From an uncultured archaeon (GTDB taxonomy: Archaea > Asgardarchaeota > Lokiarchaeia > Sigyniarchaeales > Promethearchaeaceae), in contig CAYRPF010000056.1 of NCBI GenBank assembly GCA_964426185.1, positions 13,364-22,014 on the forward strand: 8,651 bases of DNA. Reading direction: 5' to 3'. Positions 237 to 8,605 of the stretch are shown piece by piece (the first letter of the stretch is position 1; each line of letters starts with the position of its first letter). Below the pieces are notes generated by a model, which was given only the letters and a program-made list of their open reading frames with translations, searched no databases and had not been told where the DNA came from. A program made the position numbers and the translations under genes.

Positions 237-1466
237 ATGAAAAAAGTTGAACTTCTCGCTCCTGCGCAAAATAAAAAATCTATCGATGCCGTTATCCCTT
301 ATGCCAATGCAGTCTATTTTGGAAGCGATGCGCTTAATATGCGGATGAATGCCGATAATATTCCACTTTCAGAATTAAGATCTGCAGTATCCTATTGCCA
401 TGAACATAATTTACGAGCCTATTTAACCACAAATGTTATCATCTATGAAAATGAATTAAAATATTTGGAAAATTTACTTGCAAGTGCGAAAAACGCCGAA
501 ATCGATGCTGTTATTCTTCATGATCTTGCTGCTGTTGAGATAGCGCGTGAAATGGATCTTTCTTTTCATATTTCTACTCAAGCCAGTGTTTCAAATTCTC
601 GAGCAGCGCGGTTTTATGAAAAATTGGGTGCAGAAAGAATCATTCTGGCGCGTGAGTGTTCATTAGCTCAAATTCGAGAGATTGGACAGCAGTTAAAGCA
701 TACAGAGATCGAAACATTTGTTCATGGTGCTCAGTGTACTTCCGTTTCTGGGAGATGTTATTTTTCTGCTTATGTATACGATGATCCGGTGTGTTCGGCT
801 AATAGAGGTCAATGTTTGCAACCATGCAGGCATAAATGGACTTTAAAGCATTTTTCTGGAGCTGAAATCGATTACAGCGAAGGTTTTTTTCTTAATTCAA
901 AAGATCTATGCATGATTGAGCACATCCCAGAATTAATTGATGCAGGTATCGCCTCTTTCAAAATTGAAGGACGTATGCGCGATCCCCATTATATTGAAAC
1001 GGTAGCGCGCTGCTATTGTGAAGCAATTGATGCAGTTTATGCTGACAAATATACTCCTGCAAATGTCGAATCATGGTTAGGGCAATTAAAGAAAGTATAT
1101 AATCGAGGTTTTTCCACAGGATTTTATTTTGGCCGACCTGGTCCTGAAGATATTTCGGTTGATGTTGCAGGAAATCAAGCAGAAACAAAAAAAGTTCAGA
1201 TAGGAAAAGTTATAGCATATTATCGTGGTGTTCAAGTGGCAAAAATCGTCTTACATACTGGACGCTTACAATTGGGTGATGAAATTATATTTGAAGGATC
1301 GAAACGAGGTGGTTATGTTCACCAAAAAATAGAATCCATGCAATATAAAACTAAATCCATTACAATGACCCCTCCCATACCTTCAAATGGAAGTATTTTA
1401 TTAACCACTAAAGTATCTCAACCTGTAAAAAAGGGAGATTGGGTTTATCGATATTTAGAAAAATAG
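237..1466 (+). CDS. Peptidase U32 family protein (TrhP/YegQ-like; probable Fe-S-dependent, O2-independent RNA hydroxylation protein rather than a true protease)
   Basis: 409-aa ORF with the U32 motifs in order: ELLAPA, AVYFG, HISTQASVSN, GAERIILARE, ETFVHGAQCTSVSGRC, NRGQCLQPCR, SKDLCMI, SFKIEGRMR, NRGFSTGFYFG. Conserved E159, C167, C174, C193 and C197. C-terminal beta-rich domain (GKVIAYY...LQLGDEIIFEG) as in Peptidase_U32_C. Confidence 0.95.
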   Translation: MKKVELLAPAQNKKSIDAVIPYANAVYFGSDALNMRMNADNIPLSELRSAVSYCHEHNLRAYLTTNVIIYENELKYLENLLASAKNAEIDAVILHDLAAVEIAREMDLSFHISTQASVSNSRAARFYEKLGAERIILARECSLAQIREIGQQLKHTEIETFVHGAQCTSVSGRCYFSAYVYDDPVCSANRGQCLQPCRHKWTLKHFSGAEIDYSEGFFLNSKDLCMIEHIPELIDAGIASFKIEGRMRDPHYIETVARCYCEAIDAVYADKYTPANVESWLGQLKKVYNRGFSTGFYFGRPGPEDISVDVAGNQAETKKVQIGKVIAYYRGVQVAKIVLHTGRLQLGDEIIFEGSKRGGYVHQKIESMQYKTKSITMTPPIPSNGSILLTTKVSQPVKKGDWVYRYLEK

Positions 1467-1493: not shown

Positions 1494-3710
1494 TTAAGTT
1501 CGACTTTTCTGGCGTTTTTGCTTCACATAAAGATCTGCTACTTTTTCAATATCTGCATCAGTTACATTTCTTTTAAGTTTCATCCGAAGCTGAGAAATAA
1601 ATTTCTCACACAGCTCTAAATCGAGAGTTTCACCTTTGATCAAGATTAATTGTTCGAGTTTTTCTGCGGGAGTTAAGATTTTGTGTGGGTTTAGAGGTGA
1701 AGTTTCAATTGTAAATTTTTGTAAGGGATTTCGGTCATCTTTTTTTGATGAAGATTTGGTTTTTTGAATATTTGCAGACTTATGTTTACGATCTTGTTGA
1801 ACCAGAGGAGAACGTTCAAATGTAAGCGTCTTTCTGCGGGTAAATCCCTTTTTTTTCAAATTTGTGTTAGAAATAAAAGGATTTTTTGAAGAAGGCACAT
1901 TTTCATGATTTTCATGGGTTTTTGAAACAGTTAAATCTATAGGTTCGACTACATGACTGCGAATTTTAAATGAATCGATTGACATTCCCGGCTTAACTTC
2001 ATGGATTGCATTTTTAATTCCCTGTTCTTGAGACTGTGTCTGAGTGGAGCCATTTTGCACATCATCTGATTGAGATTGCCATTGTTGCTTATTTCTTTCA
2101 TGATCTGCTTGAATTTCTTCAAAAAAATCTAAATCGGTGCTCACATCCTGAATTTTCTTATGATCTCGAAGCAATGTTTCAAGTTCGTTTTCTAAATTTC
2201 CATCTCTAGCTGTTTGAGAAGAATCAGTATTTGATTGAACAGTTGTTTGATTAGTAGGGATAGATTCCGATTCACCAAGGGGTGATTTAGTGGTTTGAAG
2301 TTCATCAAGATTCACATCAGGGATTCCAGTGAAGAAAGGTTTATCCGTTTTTGCTTGATTTGTTGTATGTTTTTTGGGTGCTGTTGTTTTTTTAGCGAGA
2401 GTTTGTTTTCCCGCTGAACTCGAGGGTTTAGATAGTCCGTTAAAAAATGGGTTGTTACTATCAATATCTTGCAAAATACTTTCATGTTCTTCTGTAGAAG
2501 CAAGAGTAGTAATTTCATTATTGGTCGATTTGCCCGCAATCTTTTTTAATTTGCTTAAATCAGGAATAATTTTCCCTTGGGGTGTGGTAGGAAGCCTTTT
2601 TGCCCCGTGAAATTTTCCAAACGATATTTTTTTCGGAGCTTTGATTTTACTACGTTCAATTTCCTCTTGTAATTTTTTCTCTTCCAATTTTTGTTGTAGT
2701 TCAGAGATTTTATTTTGAAAAACATCTATATAATTGTATTCTTGATAATTTTCGCAAATTTGAATCAATTCTTTGAGTAAATCCATTGCTTTTTGAAATT
2801 TTTGTGAACTAACAAATTCATTGGCTTGTTTCAATTTGTTTTTGAATTCTGGAGGAAGTGGTTGTTTTAAACCTAAAGCCTTTGTCATCACCAATCTTAA
2901 TTGATTCTCGCCATCCGAGGCATCCAAATCCATTTTATAAACTGAATATTTTTCAAGAAATGGGTATTTTTCTTTAAAAACTTCCTCTCCAATAAACGAA
3001 GGATAATTTGCATGAGTTAAAAAAAGGGCAGCTTTACTGTATTTTCCCTCCCGCAGTCGAATAGAATTAAAATACTTCAATTCTTTTTCATTCAATTCGG
3101 GATCTGAGCCATTAATGACAAATAAAATCATATCTGATCCACGAATATAATTATTCCAAAGAGGGGATAAATTATCTTTAATAATGAAATTCCATAAGTC
3201 TAAAAAGAGGTTTCCAATTTGGATTTGATGATAAACGGCAAAATCCATCATTCTTTTATCTGGTTCTGGATTAATCTTTAATAAATCTATTATTTTCTGA
3301 CGATCTTTATCATGAGGACCCATTAATGTTATTTTTGGATGTAGGTAGTAGTGTGTTTCATTGATAAATTTAACAAATTCATCCTTCTGGACAGATGGAG
3401 TTTTAATATCTACTGGATTTGGAAAAAGCTTTTGGAACATCCTTGCAGAGCGTTGAATTTCTTTCGATATAACCTTTGGTCGATCACTCATATCGGTGAT
3501 ATAAAGGAAAAAAACCTCACCAAACATACCAAAATGAGTTTGAAAATCAAAAATTGGCTTACTAAATACTTGCCCAATAGATGGTTTGTCAATATAGCCT
3601 ACGATTTTTTTAGTTAAGATTTCTTCTAATTTTGTCTTAGAATAGGCTTTTGCAAAGATATGGGTAAAAATGGTTTCCTTCTGATAATACAGAATAACTT
3701 GCCGTAGCAT
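1494..3710 (-). CDS. Longin-like domain + degenerate small GTPase (Arf/Rab-like fold) + MIT/TPR-like helical unit + long disordered linker + C-terminal helical domain
   Basis: 738-aa ORF. Residues ~1-123 show a longin-like beta/alpha pattern (RQVILYY-x-ETIFTHIF...EVFFLYITD...ISKEIQRSARMFQKLFP). Residues ~124-281 follow small-GTPase topology: KITLMGP, LFLDLWN, LSPLWNNYIRGSDMILFVING (switch II/beta4), KAALFLTH. Residues ~285-355 are helical. Residues ~356-678 are S/T/Q/K/E-rich low complexity. The CDS is certain; the domain calls come from motif recognition. Confidence 0.8.
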   Translation of the reverse strand: MLRQVILYYQKETIFTHIFAKAYSKTKLEEILTKKIVGYIDKPSIGQVFSKPIFDFQTHFGMFGEVFFLYITDMSDRPKVISKEIQRSARMFQKLFPNPVDIKTPSVQKDEFVKFINETHYYLHPKITLMGPHDKDRQKIIDLLKINPEPDKRMMDFAVYHQIQIGNLFLDLWNFIIKDNLSPLWNNYIRGSDMILFVINGSDPELNEKELKYFNSIRLREGKYSKAALFLTHANYPSFIGEEVFKEKYPFLEKYSVYKMDLDASDGENQLRLVMTKALGLKQPLPPEFKNKLKQANEFVSSQKFQKAMDLLKELIQICENYQEYNYIDVFQNKISELQQKLEEKKLQEEIERSKIKAPKKISFGKFHGAKRLPTTPQGKIIPDLSKLKKIAGKSTNNEITTLASTEEHESILQDIDSNNPFFNGLSKPSSSAGKQTLAKKTTAPKKHTTNQAKTDKPFFTGIPDVNLDELQTTKSPLGESESIPTNQTTVQSNTDSSQTARDGNLENELETLLRDHKKIQDVSTDLDFFEEIQADHERNKQQWQSQSDDVQNGSTQTQSQEQGIKNAIHEVKPGMSIDSFKIRSHVVEPIDLTVSKTHENHENVPSSKNPFISNTNLKKKGFTRRKTLTFERSPLVQQDRKHKSANIQKTKSSSKKDDRNPLQKFTIETSPLNPHKILTPAEKLEQLILIKGETLDLELCEKFISQLRMKLKRNVTDADIEKVADLYVKQKRQKSRT

Positions 3711-3717
3711 TTGTTTT

Positions 3718-3734
3718 GTTCCCCTCGTTCCCCT
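3718..3734 (-). promoter_or_regulatory. Tandem purine-rich Shine-Dalgarno-like motif (AGGGGAAC-G-AGGGGAAC) ending 7 nt before the ATG at 3710
   Basis: Minus strand reads AGGGGAACGAGGGGAACAAAACAA-ATG. It is a G-rich island in an otherwise AT-rich spacer. Confidence 0.5.
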
Positions 3735-3760
3735 TGAAAAAAGCTCTTTATTATTATTTC

Positions 3761-3788
3761 TAATATATTATAAGATTAATGCATTAAT
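3761..3788 (-). promoter_or_regulatory. Putative archaeal TATA box region (TTATAATATATTA on the minus strand) next to a perfect 14-bp palindrome ATTAATGCATTAAT
   Basis: Palindromes at 3761-3770 (TAATATATTA) and 3775-3788 (ATTAATGCATTAAT), about 50-80 bp upstream of the longin-GTPase start. Confidence 0.4.
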
Positions 3789-3808
3789 TAAAATTGTCGT
3801 GTTATTTT

Positions 3809-5131
3809 CTATCGACCGCGCTTTGTTAAAGAATTCACCTTTGCCCGTACATTTTCAATATAAACATCTTCAGTGGGAATCCGTTCTAATAATTTTTGCG
3901 CTACTTCTACGGCTGTATCAATCATTTGAAAATTTTCCAGCAATTCTATGATTTCCAAACTGTTTTCGGTGGATAAAATTAAATGTCTTCCCGAAATACA
4001 ATCTGTAGGAGTTGATTGCTCATAAGATTCTGTTGTTTTATCCTCTTCAGATGTTTCTATTTCTTCAGATGTTTCTATTTCTTCAGATGTTTCTATTTCT
4101 TCAGAAAGTTCTGATTCTTCATTTTCTTCTGTTCGTTCTTCCAATGAATCAATATTTAATGTGGATGATGTGTTGGTTGCTGCTGATCCTACAGCATATT
4201 TTGACAGATTTTGCTGCAACGTCAGTTGTATTTCTTCTGAAAGGGGAATTTCTAATTGTTGTAATTTTTTTATTAAAGTTTTAATCCCTTGCATTACTGC
4301 GAATTCATGATCATAGCTATCAATACCAGCAAAAATTTTTTTAATCAAATTAAGAGCTATTTCAGGGGATTTTGCTTTTAATGCTGTTCCTGTTAGATGA
4401 ATGAGGCTTTGTTCTCGCAAAAATTGGCTATCAATTATGGGAATAATTTTTGTTGTTAGATACTCAACCAAAGGAATAAAATTTTGGTCAGGAATTTTGT
4501 CTACAACATCGTCTATAAAAAGAATAATGGTGTGTTTAAGTCTTGAATCATTCGTTTTTTTTCCCGTTCCGTAATTCAGCACGATATACTTTATACGTTC
4601 AATTACTTCATCGATTTTTGGTGGCACTTCAGTTAATTTATAGAAACTGGCTTCAATAGCATCTTGGATTTTTTCTTGATTCTCCAAGGGAAATGGGAAA
4701 TATTTAGTTAATTCTGGTTGTGGCCCTGCTGGGACTTTAGTTTTTGATCTTGTTTTCTTTCTTCGTTTCTTCTTCTCTCCATCTGCCCCTTCCATTTCAT
4801 CTTTAGATTTATGGGAAGCTTTTGATTTTGAATTTTGTGCAAGAATCAAATCAGGAATTTCGTAATCTCTTACTGGAAAAAGCATATACGTGTCACCTTC
4901 CTTCCAAAATGCAAATGCTTGTTTTTCTTCACAAGTTTCTCGCACTGATTTTGGTAAAGTTATGCTTCCACTTTTAGTTAATTTCAATATTTCGACTGGA
5001 TTTTTTGGGAGCTGTCGCTTTTTCTCTATAGCTTCAGATGTCTGAGCAGTTTTGACATCTTCTTTTGGATTTTGCTTTTCTTTAAGAACTTCATTTATTT
5101 CTACTGAATTGGAAGGTGGATTTTCTGACAT
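3809..5131 (-). CDS. AbrB/MazE/SpoVT-like DNA-binding domain protein with basic patch and C-terminal alpha-helical (HEAT/TPR-like) region
   Basis: 440-aa ORF. Residues ~46-88 (ILKLTKSGSITLPKSVRE...FAFWKEGDTYMLFPV) fit the swapped-hairpin consensus GxITIPxxxR...EGDxIxLxP. Residues 120-132 are KKKRRKKTRSKTK. Residues ~140-314 and ~385-436 form amphipathic helices, interrupted by an acidic loop. Confidence 0.75.
   Translation of the reverse strand: MSENPPSNSVEINEVLKEKQNPKEDVKTAQTSEAIEKKRQLPKNPVEILKLTKSGSITLPKSVRETCEEKQAFAFWKEGDTYMLFPVRDYEIPDLILAQNSKSKASHKSKDEMEGADGEKKKRRKKTRSKTKVPAGPQPELTKYFPFPLENQEKIQDAIEASFYKLTEVPPKIDEVIERIKYIVLNYGTGKKTNDSRLKHTIILFIDDVVDKIPDQNFIPLVEYLTTKIIPIIDSQFLREQSLIHLTGTALKAKSPEIALNLIKKIFAGIDSYDHEFAVMQGIKTLIKKLQQLEIPLSEEIQLTLQQNLSKYAVGSAATNTSSTLNIDSLEERTEENEESELSEEIETSEEIETSEEIETSEEDKTTESYEQSTPTDCISGRHLILSTENSLEIIELLENFQMIDTAVEVAQKLLERIPTEDVYIENVRAKVNSLTKRGR
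4044..4105. repeat. Perfect 18-bp tandem repeat TCTTCAGATGTTTCTATT x3.4, in frame, encoding (SEEIET)n
   Basis: Identical units at 4044-4061, 4062-4079 and 4080-4097, plus a partial unit TCTTCAGA at 4098-4105. Confidence 0.97.
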
Positions 5132-5418: not shown

Positions 5419-7305
5419 ATGTCGAGCCAGACGGTTTCTCTCAATCTTGCCATGGAAAATTTTCTTCAAAAAGCCTCACCTGAGTTAAAAATTTTGTTCA
5501 TCCTTTATTTTCACGACAAAATTCGACATTCAGAGATTTATAGACTGAGTCATTTATATCCAGGAATTGATAGAAAAAGTTCTCGAACGTTTTATAAAAT
5601 ATATCAACGATTGATTTCTGAGGGTTTAATAAAGAAAACTAAAGATTTTTTGATTCATCGACAGTATTATGCATATACATTAACTCCAGAAGGTAAAAAA
5701 TATATAGAATTTCTTTTACAACTCCCTACAGACGAAGAATTGATTAGTTATTCCGATTTTAAGTACATCTATTCAACCCAAGAATCTCAATCTCCATCAA
5801 TTTCTGCTAAAAATGCAGAAGATCCTGGAACTAAACCTATAATCAATTTTCTTATCGAAGAAATTAAAGATCTTAAATCTCAATTGCGTAGATTTCCAGC
5901 ACAATCAGAATTAAATTCTAATATGTCAGATTATTCTGCGAAATATTCATGGGAAGATGATAATGTTCTTGAATCTGAAGAAATTATACCAGAATCATCT
6001 GTAATTGCAAGTGGAGATCTGCTTAATGGCGATCTGAATTCAAGTGGACAACTTGATAAGGATTTAAATGATGCTGATGCTTTAGAAAATCTCAATTCTA
6101 ACGAAAATACGAATTTAAATCAAAATTCTGACCAAATCGATGGTTTTACAGCTTCTCCAAATTCTAAAACACTCGAATCCATTGAACCAACTGAACCCCC
6201 CAAACCCCCTAAACCTTCAGAACCTCCATTTATAACTCATTTGAAATCTCTTTCACAAGATGAGGTTCTTACTGAAATTCCTTCTATATTTCTCGATCCA
6301 GCAAAATGGCTCTTCTTTGTGGATTATTTTCACAAATTAGAATATAAAGGGGGTTTTAATCTCCAGATCTTTGAAAAGATTTTTCTTTCAATGAAGGAAA
6401 ATAAAGATTTCGTTAGTTTAAAAGCTAGTTTAACTCAATTAATTAACGATTTAGATTTTACATTCAATGAAGTTAATGAAATATTCATTAAATTTCCATT
6501 TCCAGTTATCGTTCAGATTTTCACAGATTATCTGCTGTTTAATTTCTCTCCTGCTGAATGGGAAAATATCAATGTGAGCTATGGAAGCGGGAAAATCTCC
6601 ATTATTCAGTTTTTGCATCAGATCTTGCGGTACTACTTCACTCAAAAGCGATATCAAGCTTGTTGGGATTTAATTCAAGAAATTCGTAGAAAGTATTCCC
6701 GCATAGGAGAAATCGCAGTCCAGTATGAAATCTCTATTCTAATACGCCAAGTGGAATATGATCGAGCCATTCAATTGATTAAAACGGAATTATTCGATCG
6801 GGAGCGGCAGGTGGGTGAGCAGAAAACTTGGTATTACATATTTCGGGCTTTTTATGATGCACAGCGTCTACCCGAATTTATTAATTTGCAATATAACGGT
6901 GATAATCGGGAATTCTATTATAATTGGTCAAAATTGGCTGAGTTAGTAATTCAAATTAAAAAGGGTCCCGATTATATACCTAATTTCTTCCGGATAAAAA
7001 CGATTCTTCGAAATTTTCTCCCAATTTTCGATAATGTAGATATAACCAATGTTTCCGAACGCTATATTTCAGAATTGAAGAAGTATCCCGATGTTAAGGA
7101 TATAAATAGGGTTTATTATTATTTTCACTTAGCTCCGATAATATATCAGATTTTCAAAAATCCTGTGGTTTTAGGGCTTCCACCAGACTATGATGCCAAT
7201 GATCTCTTGCAGATCTGCGTTCAACCCCAAAATTTGGAGCTATATGATGATTTCCCTTCAGTATTATATGAAATTCAGAATTTATCAGGAATTGAAACTA
7301 ATTAA
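5419..7305 (+). CDS. Winged helix-turn-helix (PadR/HxlR/MarR-like) domain protein with disordered acidic/Pro-rich linker and TPR-like helical C-terminal region
   Basis: 628-aa ORF (alternative start M12 at 5452). Residues ~19-101: ELKILFIL...IRHSEI...SSRTFYKIYQRLISEGLIKK...YYAYTLTPEGKKY, with the typical wing-end YxLTxxG. Short coiled coil at 141-158, D/N/S-rich linker, EPTEPPKPPKPSEPP at 256-270, and TPR-like helices at ~398-460 (YYFTQKRYQACWDLI...LIRQVEYDRAIQLI). Confidence 0.75.
   Translation: MSSQTVSLNLAMENFLQKASPELKILFILYFHDKIRHSEIYRLSHLYPGIDRKSSRTFYKIYQRLISEGLIKKTKDFLIHRQYYAYTLTPEGKKYIEFLLQLPTDEELISYSDFKYIYSTQESQSPSISAKNAEDPGTKPIINFLIEEIKDLKSQLRRFPAQSELNSNMSDYSAKYSWEDDNVLESEEIIPESSVIASGDLLNGDLNSSGQLDKDLNDADALENLNSNENTNLNQNSDQIDGFTASPNSKTLESIEPTEPPKPPKPSEPPFITHLKSLSQDEVLTEIPSIFLDPAKWLFFVDYFHKLEYKGGFNLQIFEKIFLSMKENKDFVSLKASLTQLINDLDFTFNEVNEIFIKFPFPVIVQIFTDYLLFNFSPAEWENINVSYGSGKISIIQFLHQILRYYFTQKRYQACWDLIQEIRRKYSRIGEIAVQYEISILIRQVEYDRAIQLIKTELFDRERQVGEQKTWYYIFRAFYDAQRLPEFINLQYNGDNREFYYNWSKLAELVIQIKKGPDYIPNFFRIKTILRNFLPIFDNVDITNVSERYISELKKYPDVKDINRVYYYFHLAPIIYQIFKNPVVLGLPPDYDANDLLQICVQPQNLELYDDFPSVLYEIQNLSGIETN
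6184..6228 (+). repeat. Degenerate 9-bp coding repeat x5 encoding (E/K)-P-x proline-rich linker
   Basis: GAACCAACT GAACCCCCC AAACCCCCT AAACCTTCA GAACCTCCA = EPT EPP KPP KPS EPP. Confidence 0.7.
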
Positions 7306-8605
7306 ACTTCTTCCAAAATCTTGAAATACGAAATACTGCATGTTGTAAAGATGTCCATAATAAAGTGCGTAAAGATACGTATTTTATCCATGGAGTTATT
7401 GGAATTTCGGTCTTAACTGGAATTTTTTCGAGCATTTGTATATAATCTGGAGCACAACCGCCAAAATAAGCCCCCTCATTCTTGAATTCTTCTGCACACT
7501 TCCCCAATATTATTGTTCTTTTTTTCGGCAGTTTTTCCAACTCTTCTGGCGGAATCTTTAAATTTTCCCCCAGAATAATGTAAACTTCCCCCAGAGAATT
7601 CCATCCTGCGTTTCTTCCATAACCGTCCAAAATTGCCCTAATAAAAGCCTTGCATCCTGATTTACATGTTTTTCCTTCATACACGTGAATATTTGGAGCC
7701 AAATTTGAAAGAGACATGTCTGGTCGTTTAAATTCATGTTGGTGTTTCTTTAAAATCTCGTGATCAAGCTCGGATATATTTGCCAAATTTAAAAATCCAT
7801 AACCACCTTCTTCCAGCAATTTCAAATGTAGAATTTCCTTTGGGGAATAACCCATTAAATTACAACATACCGTATCCACAGCCAAGCCATTATTGCCCAT
7901 AATCACTAAACCAGTAGGATAAGCTGATGCTTCCATCGGTCCTTGTCCTTCCCCTGCGAAAATTGCATCTGTAATTACTAAATCTGGGGGCCGTATCTGA
8001 TAAATATCTGCTATCAAGGAATGCAGCTGAGAACCATGATATTTCAACCGAGTGGGTTTAGAAATCAACCCCATTCCATTTTTAATCGAAAGAGTAATGT
8101 TTGCAAAGATATTGACCTTCAATTTTGGCAAAGAGATGAAATAATTAACCTCACGAACTAAACGGGGGTAATCTAAAGCGATTTCGGGAGTGAAAGGCTT
8201 TTCTGGAGTTATCCATGGGCGGGGAAGTTCATCAAGATACGCAAATTTGATTTTTTTCCGAAATTTAGAGGAGATCAGTTTCAAATGTTTATCCATTTGG
8301 GTCATTTTGAAGGAATAACGCGCCGAACCCATAGTTTCCCCGTCTCCAATATATACGACCTTCGCTCCTCTTGAACAGATAACTTCAGCCACGGCCATGG
8401 TTAAAACTGGGTTTGTGATGATCATTTTTACCCGTTCAGGATTTTTCACCGGAAAAACTAGTGATATTTTTAGTAAAACCGATTTTTCTTGGAAAAAAAT
8501 TTGCTTCTTTTGAAACACATCAGAGATTTTTTGCACTAAGCTGGAAAAATCGTATTTATTTTGTTCTATTAAATATACCCAAGTATCCTCACCATCGGTT
8601 GGCAT
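7298..8605 (-). CDS. DUF362 domain-containing protein with C-terminal Cys-rich (putative Fe-S) module
   Basis: 435-aa ORF with the DUF362 motif order: VLLK, ITNP...AVAE...GAKVVYIGDG, FISLPKLK, ITLSIKNGMG, RLKYH, PDLVITDAIFAGEGQGP, LAVDTVCCNLMG. The C-terminus carries C314xxGC318 (CKSGC), LGKC370 and GGC384AP. Its 3' end overlaps the convergent wHTH gene by 8 bp. Confidence 0.88.
   Translation of the reverse strand: MPTDGEDTWVYLIEQNKYDFSSLVQKISDVFQKKQIFFQEKSVLLKISLVFPVKNPERVKMIITNPVLTMAVAEVICSRGAKVVYIGDGETMGSARYSFKMTQMDKHLKLISSKFRKKIKFAYLDELPRPWITPEKPFTPEIALDYPRLVREVNYFISLPKLKVNIFANITLSIKNGMGLISKPTRLKYHGSQLHSLIADIYQIRPPDLVITDAIFAGEGQGPMEASAYPTGLVIMGNNGLAVDTVCCNLMGYSPKEILHLKLLEEGGYGFLNLANISELDHEILKKHQHEFKRPDMSLSNLAPNIHVYEGKTCKSGCKAFIRAILDGYGRNAGWNSLGEVYIILGENLKIPPEELEKLPKKRTIILGKCAEEFKNEGAYFGGCAPDYIQMLEKIPVKTEIPITPWIKYVSLRTLLWTSLQHAVFRISRFWKKFN

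Follow-up and report, generated by a model that had tools for sequence, protein, structure and literature searches.

A longin-fused Arf-like G domain stripped of its nucleotide-binding motifs in one Lokiarchaeal genus is probably a maintained pseudoGTPase

Small GTPases and the longin and roadblock platforms that accompany them are central to the debate on how far Asgard archaea anticipated eukaryotic trafficking. An 8,651-nucleotide stretch of DNA from an uncultured archaeon of the Promethearchaeaceae (Asgardarchaeota; Lokiarchaeia; Sigyniarchaeales; contig CAYRPF010000056.1, positions 13,364 to 22,014), called the window in its full length below, carries a gene for a 738-amino-acid protein in which a longin domain is fused to an Arf-like G domain. 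All motifs of this G domain are degenerate, and the locus raises the question of what such a protein is and whether it is still in use. The analysis presented here indicates that the G domain is probably a pseudoGTPase of the class i type, found in one genus, and that the protein most likely acts as a nucleotide-independent scaffold. The parts of the gene are the following (coordinates of the window; aa, amino acids; AF2, AlphaFold2; dN/dS, ratio of nonsynonymous to synonymous substitution rates).

1494..3710, minus strand: whole gene, 738 codons and a stop, encoding a longin domain, a putative pseudo-G domain, a helical hairpin/coiled coil, a disordered linker and a C-terminal helical domain (full-length homologs)
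3342..3710, minus strand: longin domain, aa 1-123, with the order beta-beta-alpha-beta-beta-beta-alpha-alpha (AF2, Foldseek, profile match to AP-2 sigma, Pfam matches in some members)
2868..3341, minus strand: Arf/Sar/Arl-like G-domain fold without nucleotide-binding motifs, aa 124-281 (AF2, structure comparison, Pfam Arf on aa 161-217 only)
3297..3320, minus strand: G1/P-loop remnant GPHDKDRQ, aa 131-138, with Gly136 changed to Asp, Lys137 to Arg and Thr138 to Gln (family alignments)
3180..3200, minus strand: G3 remnant DLWNFII, aa 171-177, with Asn for the Mg/water Asp and with the DxxG Gly and the catalytic Gln absent (Arf1 and family alignments)
3117..3167, minus strand: switch II/alpha2/beta4 segment SPLWNNYIRGSDMILFV, aa 182-198, near-unchanged across dead (motif-less) and live (P-loop-intact) orthologs (conserved positions 182-193 common to both)
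3006..3017, minus strand: G4 remnant THAN, aa 232-235, for NKxD (THxD in the family's live orthologs; family alignment)
2616..2867, minus strand: conserved linker motif GLKxxLPxEF, helical hairpin and coiled coil, ending in APKKISFG, aa 282-365 (alignment)
1674..2615, minus strand: low-complexity linker, probably disordered, aa 366-679, with short conserved NPFF-type motifs at aa 420, 457 and 610 (dN/dS 0.18-0.29)
1497..1673, minus strand: C-terminal helical domain of about 55 aa, aa 680-738, common to the whole orthogroup and not to the canonical paralogs (alignment; dN/dS 0.02-0.08)

The open reading frame on the minus strand (1494..3710) contains no interruption, and it represents a real gene and not a chance frame, as 116 cluster representatives match it at E ≤ 1e-3 and the start MLRQV is conserved family-wide. 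The roles of the P-loop Lys and Ser/Thr, the switch-I Thr, DxxG and NKxD in binding nucleotide and Mg belong to established G-protein chemistry. Alignment to Arf1 and to more than 100 relatives was used to follow these residues. The G1 motif, GPHDKDRQ (nt 3320-3297), which stands at the end of the KITLMG strand (aa 126-131), reads G-x4-D-R-Q instead of the canonical G-x4-G-K-[ST], and G3, within LWNFII (aa 172-177), reads W-N-F-I-I-K instead of W-D-x-G-G-Q. In the alignment to the relatives, G4 reads T-H-A-N instead of N-K-x-D and is preceded by AALFL (aa 227-231). The G5 position is occupied by MDLD, whereas the canonical form is (S/C/V)A(T). The switch-I Thr is also gone, switch I reading RMMDFAVY where the canonical paralogs show PTI(S/T)G; this loss was missing from the list of motifs in the preliminary description of the locus, which had been made from the sequence alone. 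The scaffold stretch of switch II, LWNNYIRGSDMILFV, corresponds to aa 184-198. A scan of all 738 aa revealed no other Walker A or NKxD motif.

In a sequence search against solved structures, aa ~162-235 align to Arf1 with E about 1e-3, WNFIIKD falling on WDVGGQD and PLWNNY on PLWRHY. Therefore, these are the true G3 and switch-II positions, and the Asp, Gly and Gln have all been replaced. For G4, an alternative register, in which a HMMER pairwise alignment to Arf1 sets N235 on the Asn of NKQD and G4 becomes NYPS, was rejected in favor of the family alignment with THAN on NKQD; G4 is dead in either register. The Pfam Arf model (PF00025) scores 22.4 bits against a cut-off of 22.3 on aa 161-217 only, and in the genome scan it stays below the cut-off, at 20.4 bits. 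None of the nucleotide-binding motifs of PF00025 members, i.e., G1 GxxxxGK[S/T], the G2 switch-I Thr, G3 WDxGGQ, G4 NKxD and G5 (S/C)A(T/K), was found, and the place of the N-terminal amphipathic helix is taken by the 123-aa longin domain beginning MLRQV. Because the P-loop Gly, Lys and Thr, the G3 Asp and the G4 Asp are all replaced, canonical binding of GTP/GDP and Mg would not be possible for this form. A kept G fold without nucleotide- and Mg-binding residues corresponds to class i of the pseudoGTPases.

The fold itself was examined with AF2 models of aa 1-290, based on a 67-sequence alignment, and of aa 1-125 alone. The first reached a predicted local distance difference test (pLDDT) of 94.9 and a predicted template-modelling score (pTM) of 0.88, and the second a pLDDT of 95.5. 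The modelled G domain has the Ras-like fold and is closest to Arf/Arl/Sar structures, with Z of 16.4 to Arl3, 16.2 to Arf6, 16.1 to Sar1 and 15.1 to the Asgard HodArfR1; the root-mean-square deviation of the superpositions is 2.6-3.0 Å over about 148 residues, and the Foldseek TMt reaches 0.76. The N-terminal part is a five-stranded antiparallel sheet in the longin order beta2-alpha1-beta3-alpha2-alpha3, without an N-terminal helix (DSSP: E2-9, E12-18, H25-41, E48-53, E56-63, E66-72, H78-95, H107-123). Its Foldseek matches include the sigma subunits of AP-1/AP-2 (E 6.6e-5 to 3.9e-4), the VAMP7 longin (TMq 0.67-0.73), SRX of SR-alpha (E 4.4e-4, TMq 0.54), mu-adaptin N-termini, Ykt6, Sec22b and TRAPP subunits. 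The longin profile also matches AP-2 sigma with E=1.6e-4, and Clat_adaptor_s, Longin or Fuz_longin_1 of Pfam match in 9 of 59 family members. In the model, the longin domain is packed on the Arf-like G domain, and this two-domain unit superposes on Arf-family Atlas clusters of Promethearchaeota and Thorarchaeota (TM 0.79-0.82). The preliminary description had reported an uninterrupted frame of 738 codons, degenerate G1, G3, G4 and G5, a longin domain at the N-terminus and a G-domain fold at aa 124-281. These claims agree with the open frame, with the motifs, all of which lie where they were said to lie, with the alignments to Arf1 and relatives, with the AF2, Foldseek and profile results for the longin domain and with the Arf/Arl/Sar matches at Z about 16.

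Several side observations on the two-domain model can be added. The top structural matches of aa 124-281 are mostly GTP- or transition-state forms (Arl3-RP2 with GDP-AlF4, Arf6-GTP, Sar1 in Sec23 complexes), and GDP-form Arf1 entries show a lower Foldseek TM, with Z differences below 1. At most, this hints that the apo G domain as predicted may resemble the "on" conformation. Lys47 of the longin domain, in a P-x2-G-K loop (nt 3570-3572), is Lys in 31 of 41 P-loop-intact orthologs and Gln or Glu in all five dead-clade sequences of that alignment, having changed together with the pocket, and Asp76 is almost invariant in dead, live and canonical members. Position 47 and Asp76 may mark the longin-G interface.

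The likeness of the longin domain to sigma-adaptin opens one alternative to a scaffold that arose by loss of the switch in a single genus. Longin platforms such as TRAPP, Mon1-Ccz1 and DENN stabilize empty GTPases. The cis-fused longin might similarly hold the Arf-like domain nucleotide-free or effector-like, so that the whole orthogroup would be a nucleotide-independent proto-adaptor and, in Asgard archaea, would foreshadow the Arf-plus-longin logic of AP/COPI coats or of AAGAB-type chaperones. Such an adaptor would consist of the longin-G head, the linker with its NPF-type motifs and the C-terminal domain as a docking part. If this were true, the loss of the P-loop at the level of the genus would amount to proof from nature that the switch can be dispensed with. 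We consider this broader alternative unlikely.

The homologs are Promethearchaeota (Lokiarchaeal) proteins; the exhaustive search yielded the 116 cluster representatives, and three grades are seen in the motifs. A paralogous set (n=52 representatives) is canonical, with GFSGVGKTT, switch-I PTI, WDFAGQE and NKQD; G1 is intact in 52/52, and G4 is NKxD in 51 and NMxD in one. The orthogroup of the window gene (n=47 representatives), which has the conserved C-terminal domain in common, has no member with the switch-I Thr, the DxxG Gly or the Gln, and its G4 ranges from NKxD in the more distant family through THxD in the closer family down to eroded forms. Whether relatives retain the P-loop was a check proposed in the preliminary description, and GxxxxGK[ST] is indeed retained in 39 of these 47. 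The live orthologs probably bind nucleotide and do not hydrolyze it. The third grade comprises six sequences from at least six assemblies, in which G134, G136, K137 (to Arg), T138 (to Gln), D174 (to Asn) and the G4 Asp are all lost. Besides the window protein, they are one from a closed genome of the same genus, 73% identical to it, and four that share about 62% identity with it, and the fully dead state is confined to the genus of the window. In the maximum-likelihood tree, the six form one clade with 100/100 support, several nodes deep within the P-loop-intact orthologs. Because the dead clade is monophyletic and nested in live orthologs, the tree indicates that the P-loop was lost in a single event. 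Only 16 live-conserved positions differ in every dead sequence, four of them being the pocket residues G134, G136, K137 and D174, and 97 positions, the interswitch and switch-II segment included, are conserved in both groups.

Partial erosion was also observed in other genera. The P-loop Lys is replaced by Arg, with GxxxxG-R-TT otherwise intact, in two representatives (P0042, P0051) and one genome locus (L037), and the G3 Asp is replaced by Asn, with the P-loop intact, in one representative (P0036) and two genome loci (L022, L032). The two kinds of erosion occur in lineages of the same orthogroup that are independent of each other. The state of the orthogroup suggests that catalysis is generally under weak constraint in it.

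The pocket of the dead clade has not become uniformly free. Arg137 and Gln138 are invariant in 6/6 dead sequences and Asp136 occurs in 5/6, which means that the old pocket is still constrained there. These residues favor the possibility that the G domain has a non-canonical way of binding a nucleotide or some other phosphorylated ligand (class ii/iii-like), with Arg137 in place of Lys and other residues compensating, as does the Lys-to-Arg change in an intact GxxxxG-R-[ST] in the two representatives and the locus named above. However, an acidic side chain at the Gly before the Lys would clash with the beta-phosphate and repel it, the Mg ligands (Thr138, switch-I Thr, Asp174) and the guanine-specificity Asp have all gone together, and positions 133-135, along with the G4 tetrad, vary freely inside the dead clade. 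A non-canonical ligand is therefore doubtful, and the absence of nucleotide binding that a class i pseudoGTPase implies would better fit the pocket.

The position of the gene among its orthologs is also important for its interpretation. The genome to which the window belongs (3.26 Mb, 92% complete) has one orthogroup member, and a match, nearly always exactly one, was found in 130 of the 151 genomes sampled across the order, among them the closed genome of the same genus. Over the N-terminal 290 aa, identity to P-loop-intact proteins, MK-D1 included, is 44-48%. The orthology is collinear, with E 2.6e-81 and 100% coverage of aa 1-290, an aligned C-terminal domain, a neighborhood in common and the nested position in the tree. 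These sequence comparisons identify the window gene as the Lokiarchaeal ortholog, in single copy, of a multidomain longin-Arf-like protein that also occurs in Promethearchaeum syntrophicum MK-D1. As the dead form is the sole orthogroup member per genome, is nested in live single-copy orthologs and shares their synteny, it appears to have replaced the live ortholog and not to be a spare copy beside it.

This replacement bears directly on a proposal of the preliminary description, namely that the dead longin-G protein forms a heterodimer with an active longin-GTPase paralog. In a strict form of this model, the partner would be obligate, the contacts would be longin-longin or G-G, and the protein would resemble an inactive Rag- or SR-type subunit. 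Possible partners are at hand, as the same genome contains a canonical short longin-Arf paralog and 52 matches to the Pfam Arf model in its 3.26 Mb. The paralog (L040, G000:C21:752-1660, minus strand) is about 300 aa long, lies near a contig end and shows GYAGVGKTT, WDFAGQ and NKQD. Dimers are common among longin and roadblock domains, and for MK-D1 fusions both homo- and heterodimers were modelled in the work described in PMC10933270. Nevertheless, neither its own genome nor the closed one of the genus has an extra copy beside the dead protein, about 10 dead and live loci examined show no linked GTPase gene, nothing connects the short paralog with the window gene, and the live orthologs of sister genera share the architecture and the neighbors, so that a need for a new partner is not evident. 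The proposal thus found no support as a dead paralog, and an obligate partner role in general seems improbable.

Whether the dead G domain is maintained was assessed by dN/dS (Nei-Gojobori) in dead-clade pairs at unsaturated dS of 0.2-1.2. The values were 0.08-0.16 for the G domain, 0.035-0.065 for the longin domain, 0.02-0.08 for the C-terminal domain and about 0.2 for the disordered linker; two pairs of live orthologs, taken as controls, gave 0.03-0.09 for the G domain. Between the window and its nearest relative, the G-domain value was 0.09 at a dS near saturation. By this measure the domain is maintained under purifying selection and is not decaying, and its values are far from 1, the value that the preliminary description had named as refutation. 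Although every catalytic motif is lost and the stem branch of the dead clade is somewhat long (0.45), a recently inactivated GTPase en route to a pseudogene is extremely unlikely and was rejected, given these dN/dS values, the nested tree position, the 97 jointly conserved positions and the intact frames, 738-762 codons long, of six sequences that come from independent assemblies and have diverged to 62-73% identity.

The reading of the protein as a nucleotide-independent scaffold can be put as a sequence of steps. In one event, the P-loop Gly, Lys and Thr, the G3 Asp and the G4 Asp would have been replaced while the fold was kept. The loss may have been tolerable because the orthogroup was already without hydrolysis, lacking the switch-I Thr, the DxxG Gly and the catalytic Gln. 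In the orthogroup, nucleotide would probably be at most a structural ligand, and the genus of the window would have dispensed with it. The longin-G module would then be fixed in one conformation, with the conserved interswitch/switch-II surface exposed, and partners may be recruited by the helical/coiled-coil segment, the long motif-bearing disordered linker and the conserved C-terminal domain. The longin-G head would thus serve as a structural interaction module and the remainder as a multivalent scaffold. Some points weigh against this reading. The locked conformation presenting switch II is something that we infer from a predicted model, and Arg137 retains a positive charge, so that a non-canonical ligand is conceivable on sequence grounds. 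Moreover, dS is saturated in the deeper comparisons, and in a genome that is 92% complete a second copy is, strictly speaking, still conceivable.

The regions behind the G domain, to which the scaffold reading assigns the recruitment of partners, show features of their own. The linker (aa 366-679) looks like a multivalent docking region in its sequence. It contains NNPFFNGL at aa 420, DKPFFTGI at aa 457 and KNPFISN at aa 610 (window 1674-2615), and one to three NPFF-type motifs per linker are seen again in dead and live orthologs. Further recurring linker motifs are F-x-I-[RK]-x-[HY]-x-V-x-PI and G-x-TR-x-K-x-LT-x-E-x-SPL. The C-terminal domain is the most strongly constrained part of the protein by dN/dS. 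A Gly and a Cys (I-x3-G-x2-L-x4-C) are near-invariant in it across 29 sequences from two families of the order, and a profile search with this 55-aa domain gave no PDB sequence match below E=0.6.

The neighborhood of the gene in the window consists of the following features.

237-1466, plus strand: U32 peptidase (Pfam E 4.7e-77), convergent with the longin-G gene
3711..3808, minus strand: AT-rich spacer of 98 nt between the genes, in which a TATA-like and a G-rich stretch lie ahead of the ATG (sequence)
3809..5131, minus strand: P0003, conserved neighbor 5' of the gene, 440 aa, with an AbrB/MazE-like hairpin, a basic patch, a helical domain, an acidic stretch and C-terminal helices (dead and live loci)
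5419-7305, plus strand: 628-aa protein with a weak PadR-like N-terminus
7298-8605, minus strand: DUF362 protein (E 8.4e-30)

The U32 peptidase is found near the gene at dead and live loci, MK-D1 included. A P0003-type gene lies directly 5' of the longin-G gene in all 10 loci of family f1 that were checked, dead and live, and 70 columns are invariant among 10 homologs. P0003 carries the hairpin motif LTKSGSITLPKSVRE, a KKKRRKK basic patch and an acidic Glu/Ser/Thr repeat. It is restricted to Promethearchaeota, its only Atlas match is an unnamed cluster of that group (0.82), and its Pfam matches to MazE/AbrB (MazE_antitoxin) are sub-threshold, with no family above the threshold. A tblastn search of the 1.5-kb flanks of loci L017-L039 did not find a P0003-like gene beside more distant orthologs, which limits the evidence for the pairing to part of family f1. 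Public DNA runs that contain the sequence derive from marine, vent and sediment metagenomes; no RNA run is listed among them, a result that bears neither way on expression.

PseudoGTPases have so far been studied mainly in eukaryotes, and the protein described here would extend them to archaea. It represents a natural switch-dead allele, maintained by selection, of a protein that nearly all Lokiarchaeales encode in a single copy. The relatives span the range from canonical paralogs through P-loop-keeping orthologs without catalytic residues to forms with no motifs. Matched pairs, such as the ortholog of the cultured MK-D1 and the window protein, could show which longin-GTPase interactions of Asgard archaea need nucleotide.

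Among known systems, the closest is the ortholog of MK-D1 (P0017), annotated as an "ADP-ribosylation factor-like protein". It has the same layout of longin, Arf-like, helical, disordered and C-terminal parts, belongs to the same orthogroup, is 46% identical over the first 290 aa and has an AbrB-like gene 5' and a U32 peptidase nearby. It differs in keeping GxxxxGK[ST], WD and THxD/NKxD, all of which are lost in the genus of the window. The eukaryotic Arf/Arl/Sar1 proteins (PF00025) share the G-domain fold, with Z about 16, and the interswitch/switch-II signature W-x(8-9)-PLW-x-x-Y is kept in the window protein. However, the latter has a longin domain in place of the N-terminal amphipathic helix, no G1-G5 and a threshold-level Pfam score on the switch-II region. 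The N-terminal amphipathic helix of Arf is usually myristoylated. SRX/SR-beta (PDB 1nrj) also pairs a longin domain with an Arf-like G domain, and SRX is a structural match of the window N-terminus; in that system, however, two chains bind in a GTP-dependent manner, SR-beta has a membrane anchor and intact motifs, and the window gene lies in no SRP-related context. In Rag/Gtr proteins, a small G domain is likewise covalently joined to a platform of the longin/roadblock superfamily. The window protein does not show their arrangement of an N-terminal G domain and a C-terminal roadblock, as its order is reversed (platform N-terminal) and its platform is a longin and not a roadblock fold, without the roadblock-type N-terminal helix; a match to the Pfam Gtr1_RagA model was seen only on a canonical paralog.

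The nearest functional analogy is AAGAB, a class i pseudoGTPase that binds the sigma subunits of AP-1/AP-2 in trans by the surface opposite the switches (PMC12490416, PDB 9ddt). In both cases, a G fold without nucleotide binding, demonstrated for AAGAB and predicted here, works with a longin of the sigma-adaptin type, and the 9ddt sigma subunit is among the structural matches of the window longin domain. AAGAB is eukaryotic and its longin is bound in trans, whereas the longin of the window protein is fused in cis, and the likeness would be one of function.

Since 2016, Lokiarchaeota have been known to encode fusions of longin and Arf-like domains (Klinger et al., 2016, as cited in PMC4917890). 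Moreover, 26 roadblock- or longin-fused GTPases of MK-D1 were modelled by Tran et al. (2024), who class such Asgard fusions as Rag-/Arf-like (PMC10933270). In the sections of PMC4917890 and PMC10933270 that give an account of these fusions, no inactive member is mentioned, and a full-text literature search for "pseudoGTPase" with "archaea" returned two general reviews only. The preliminary description had regarded the protein as the strongest protein-level novelty candidate of the window; this view is tempered by the fact that longin-Arf fusions are published. The new element, set against these known systems, is a fully dead state that is kept by selection and is accompanied by graded intermediates in its relatives.

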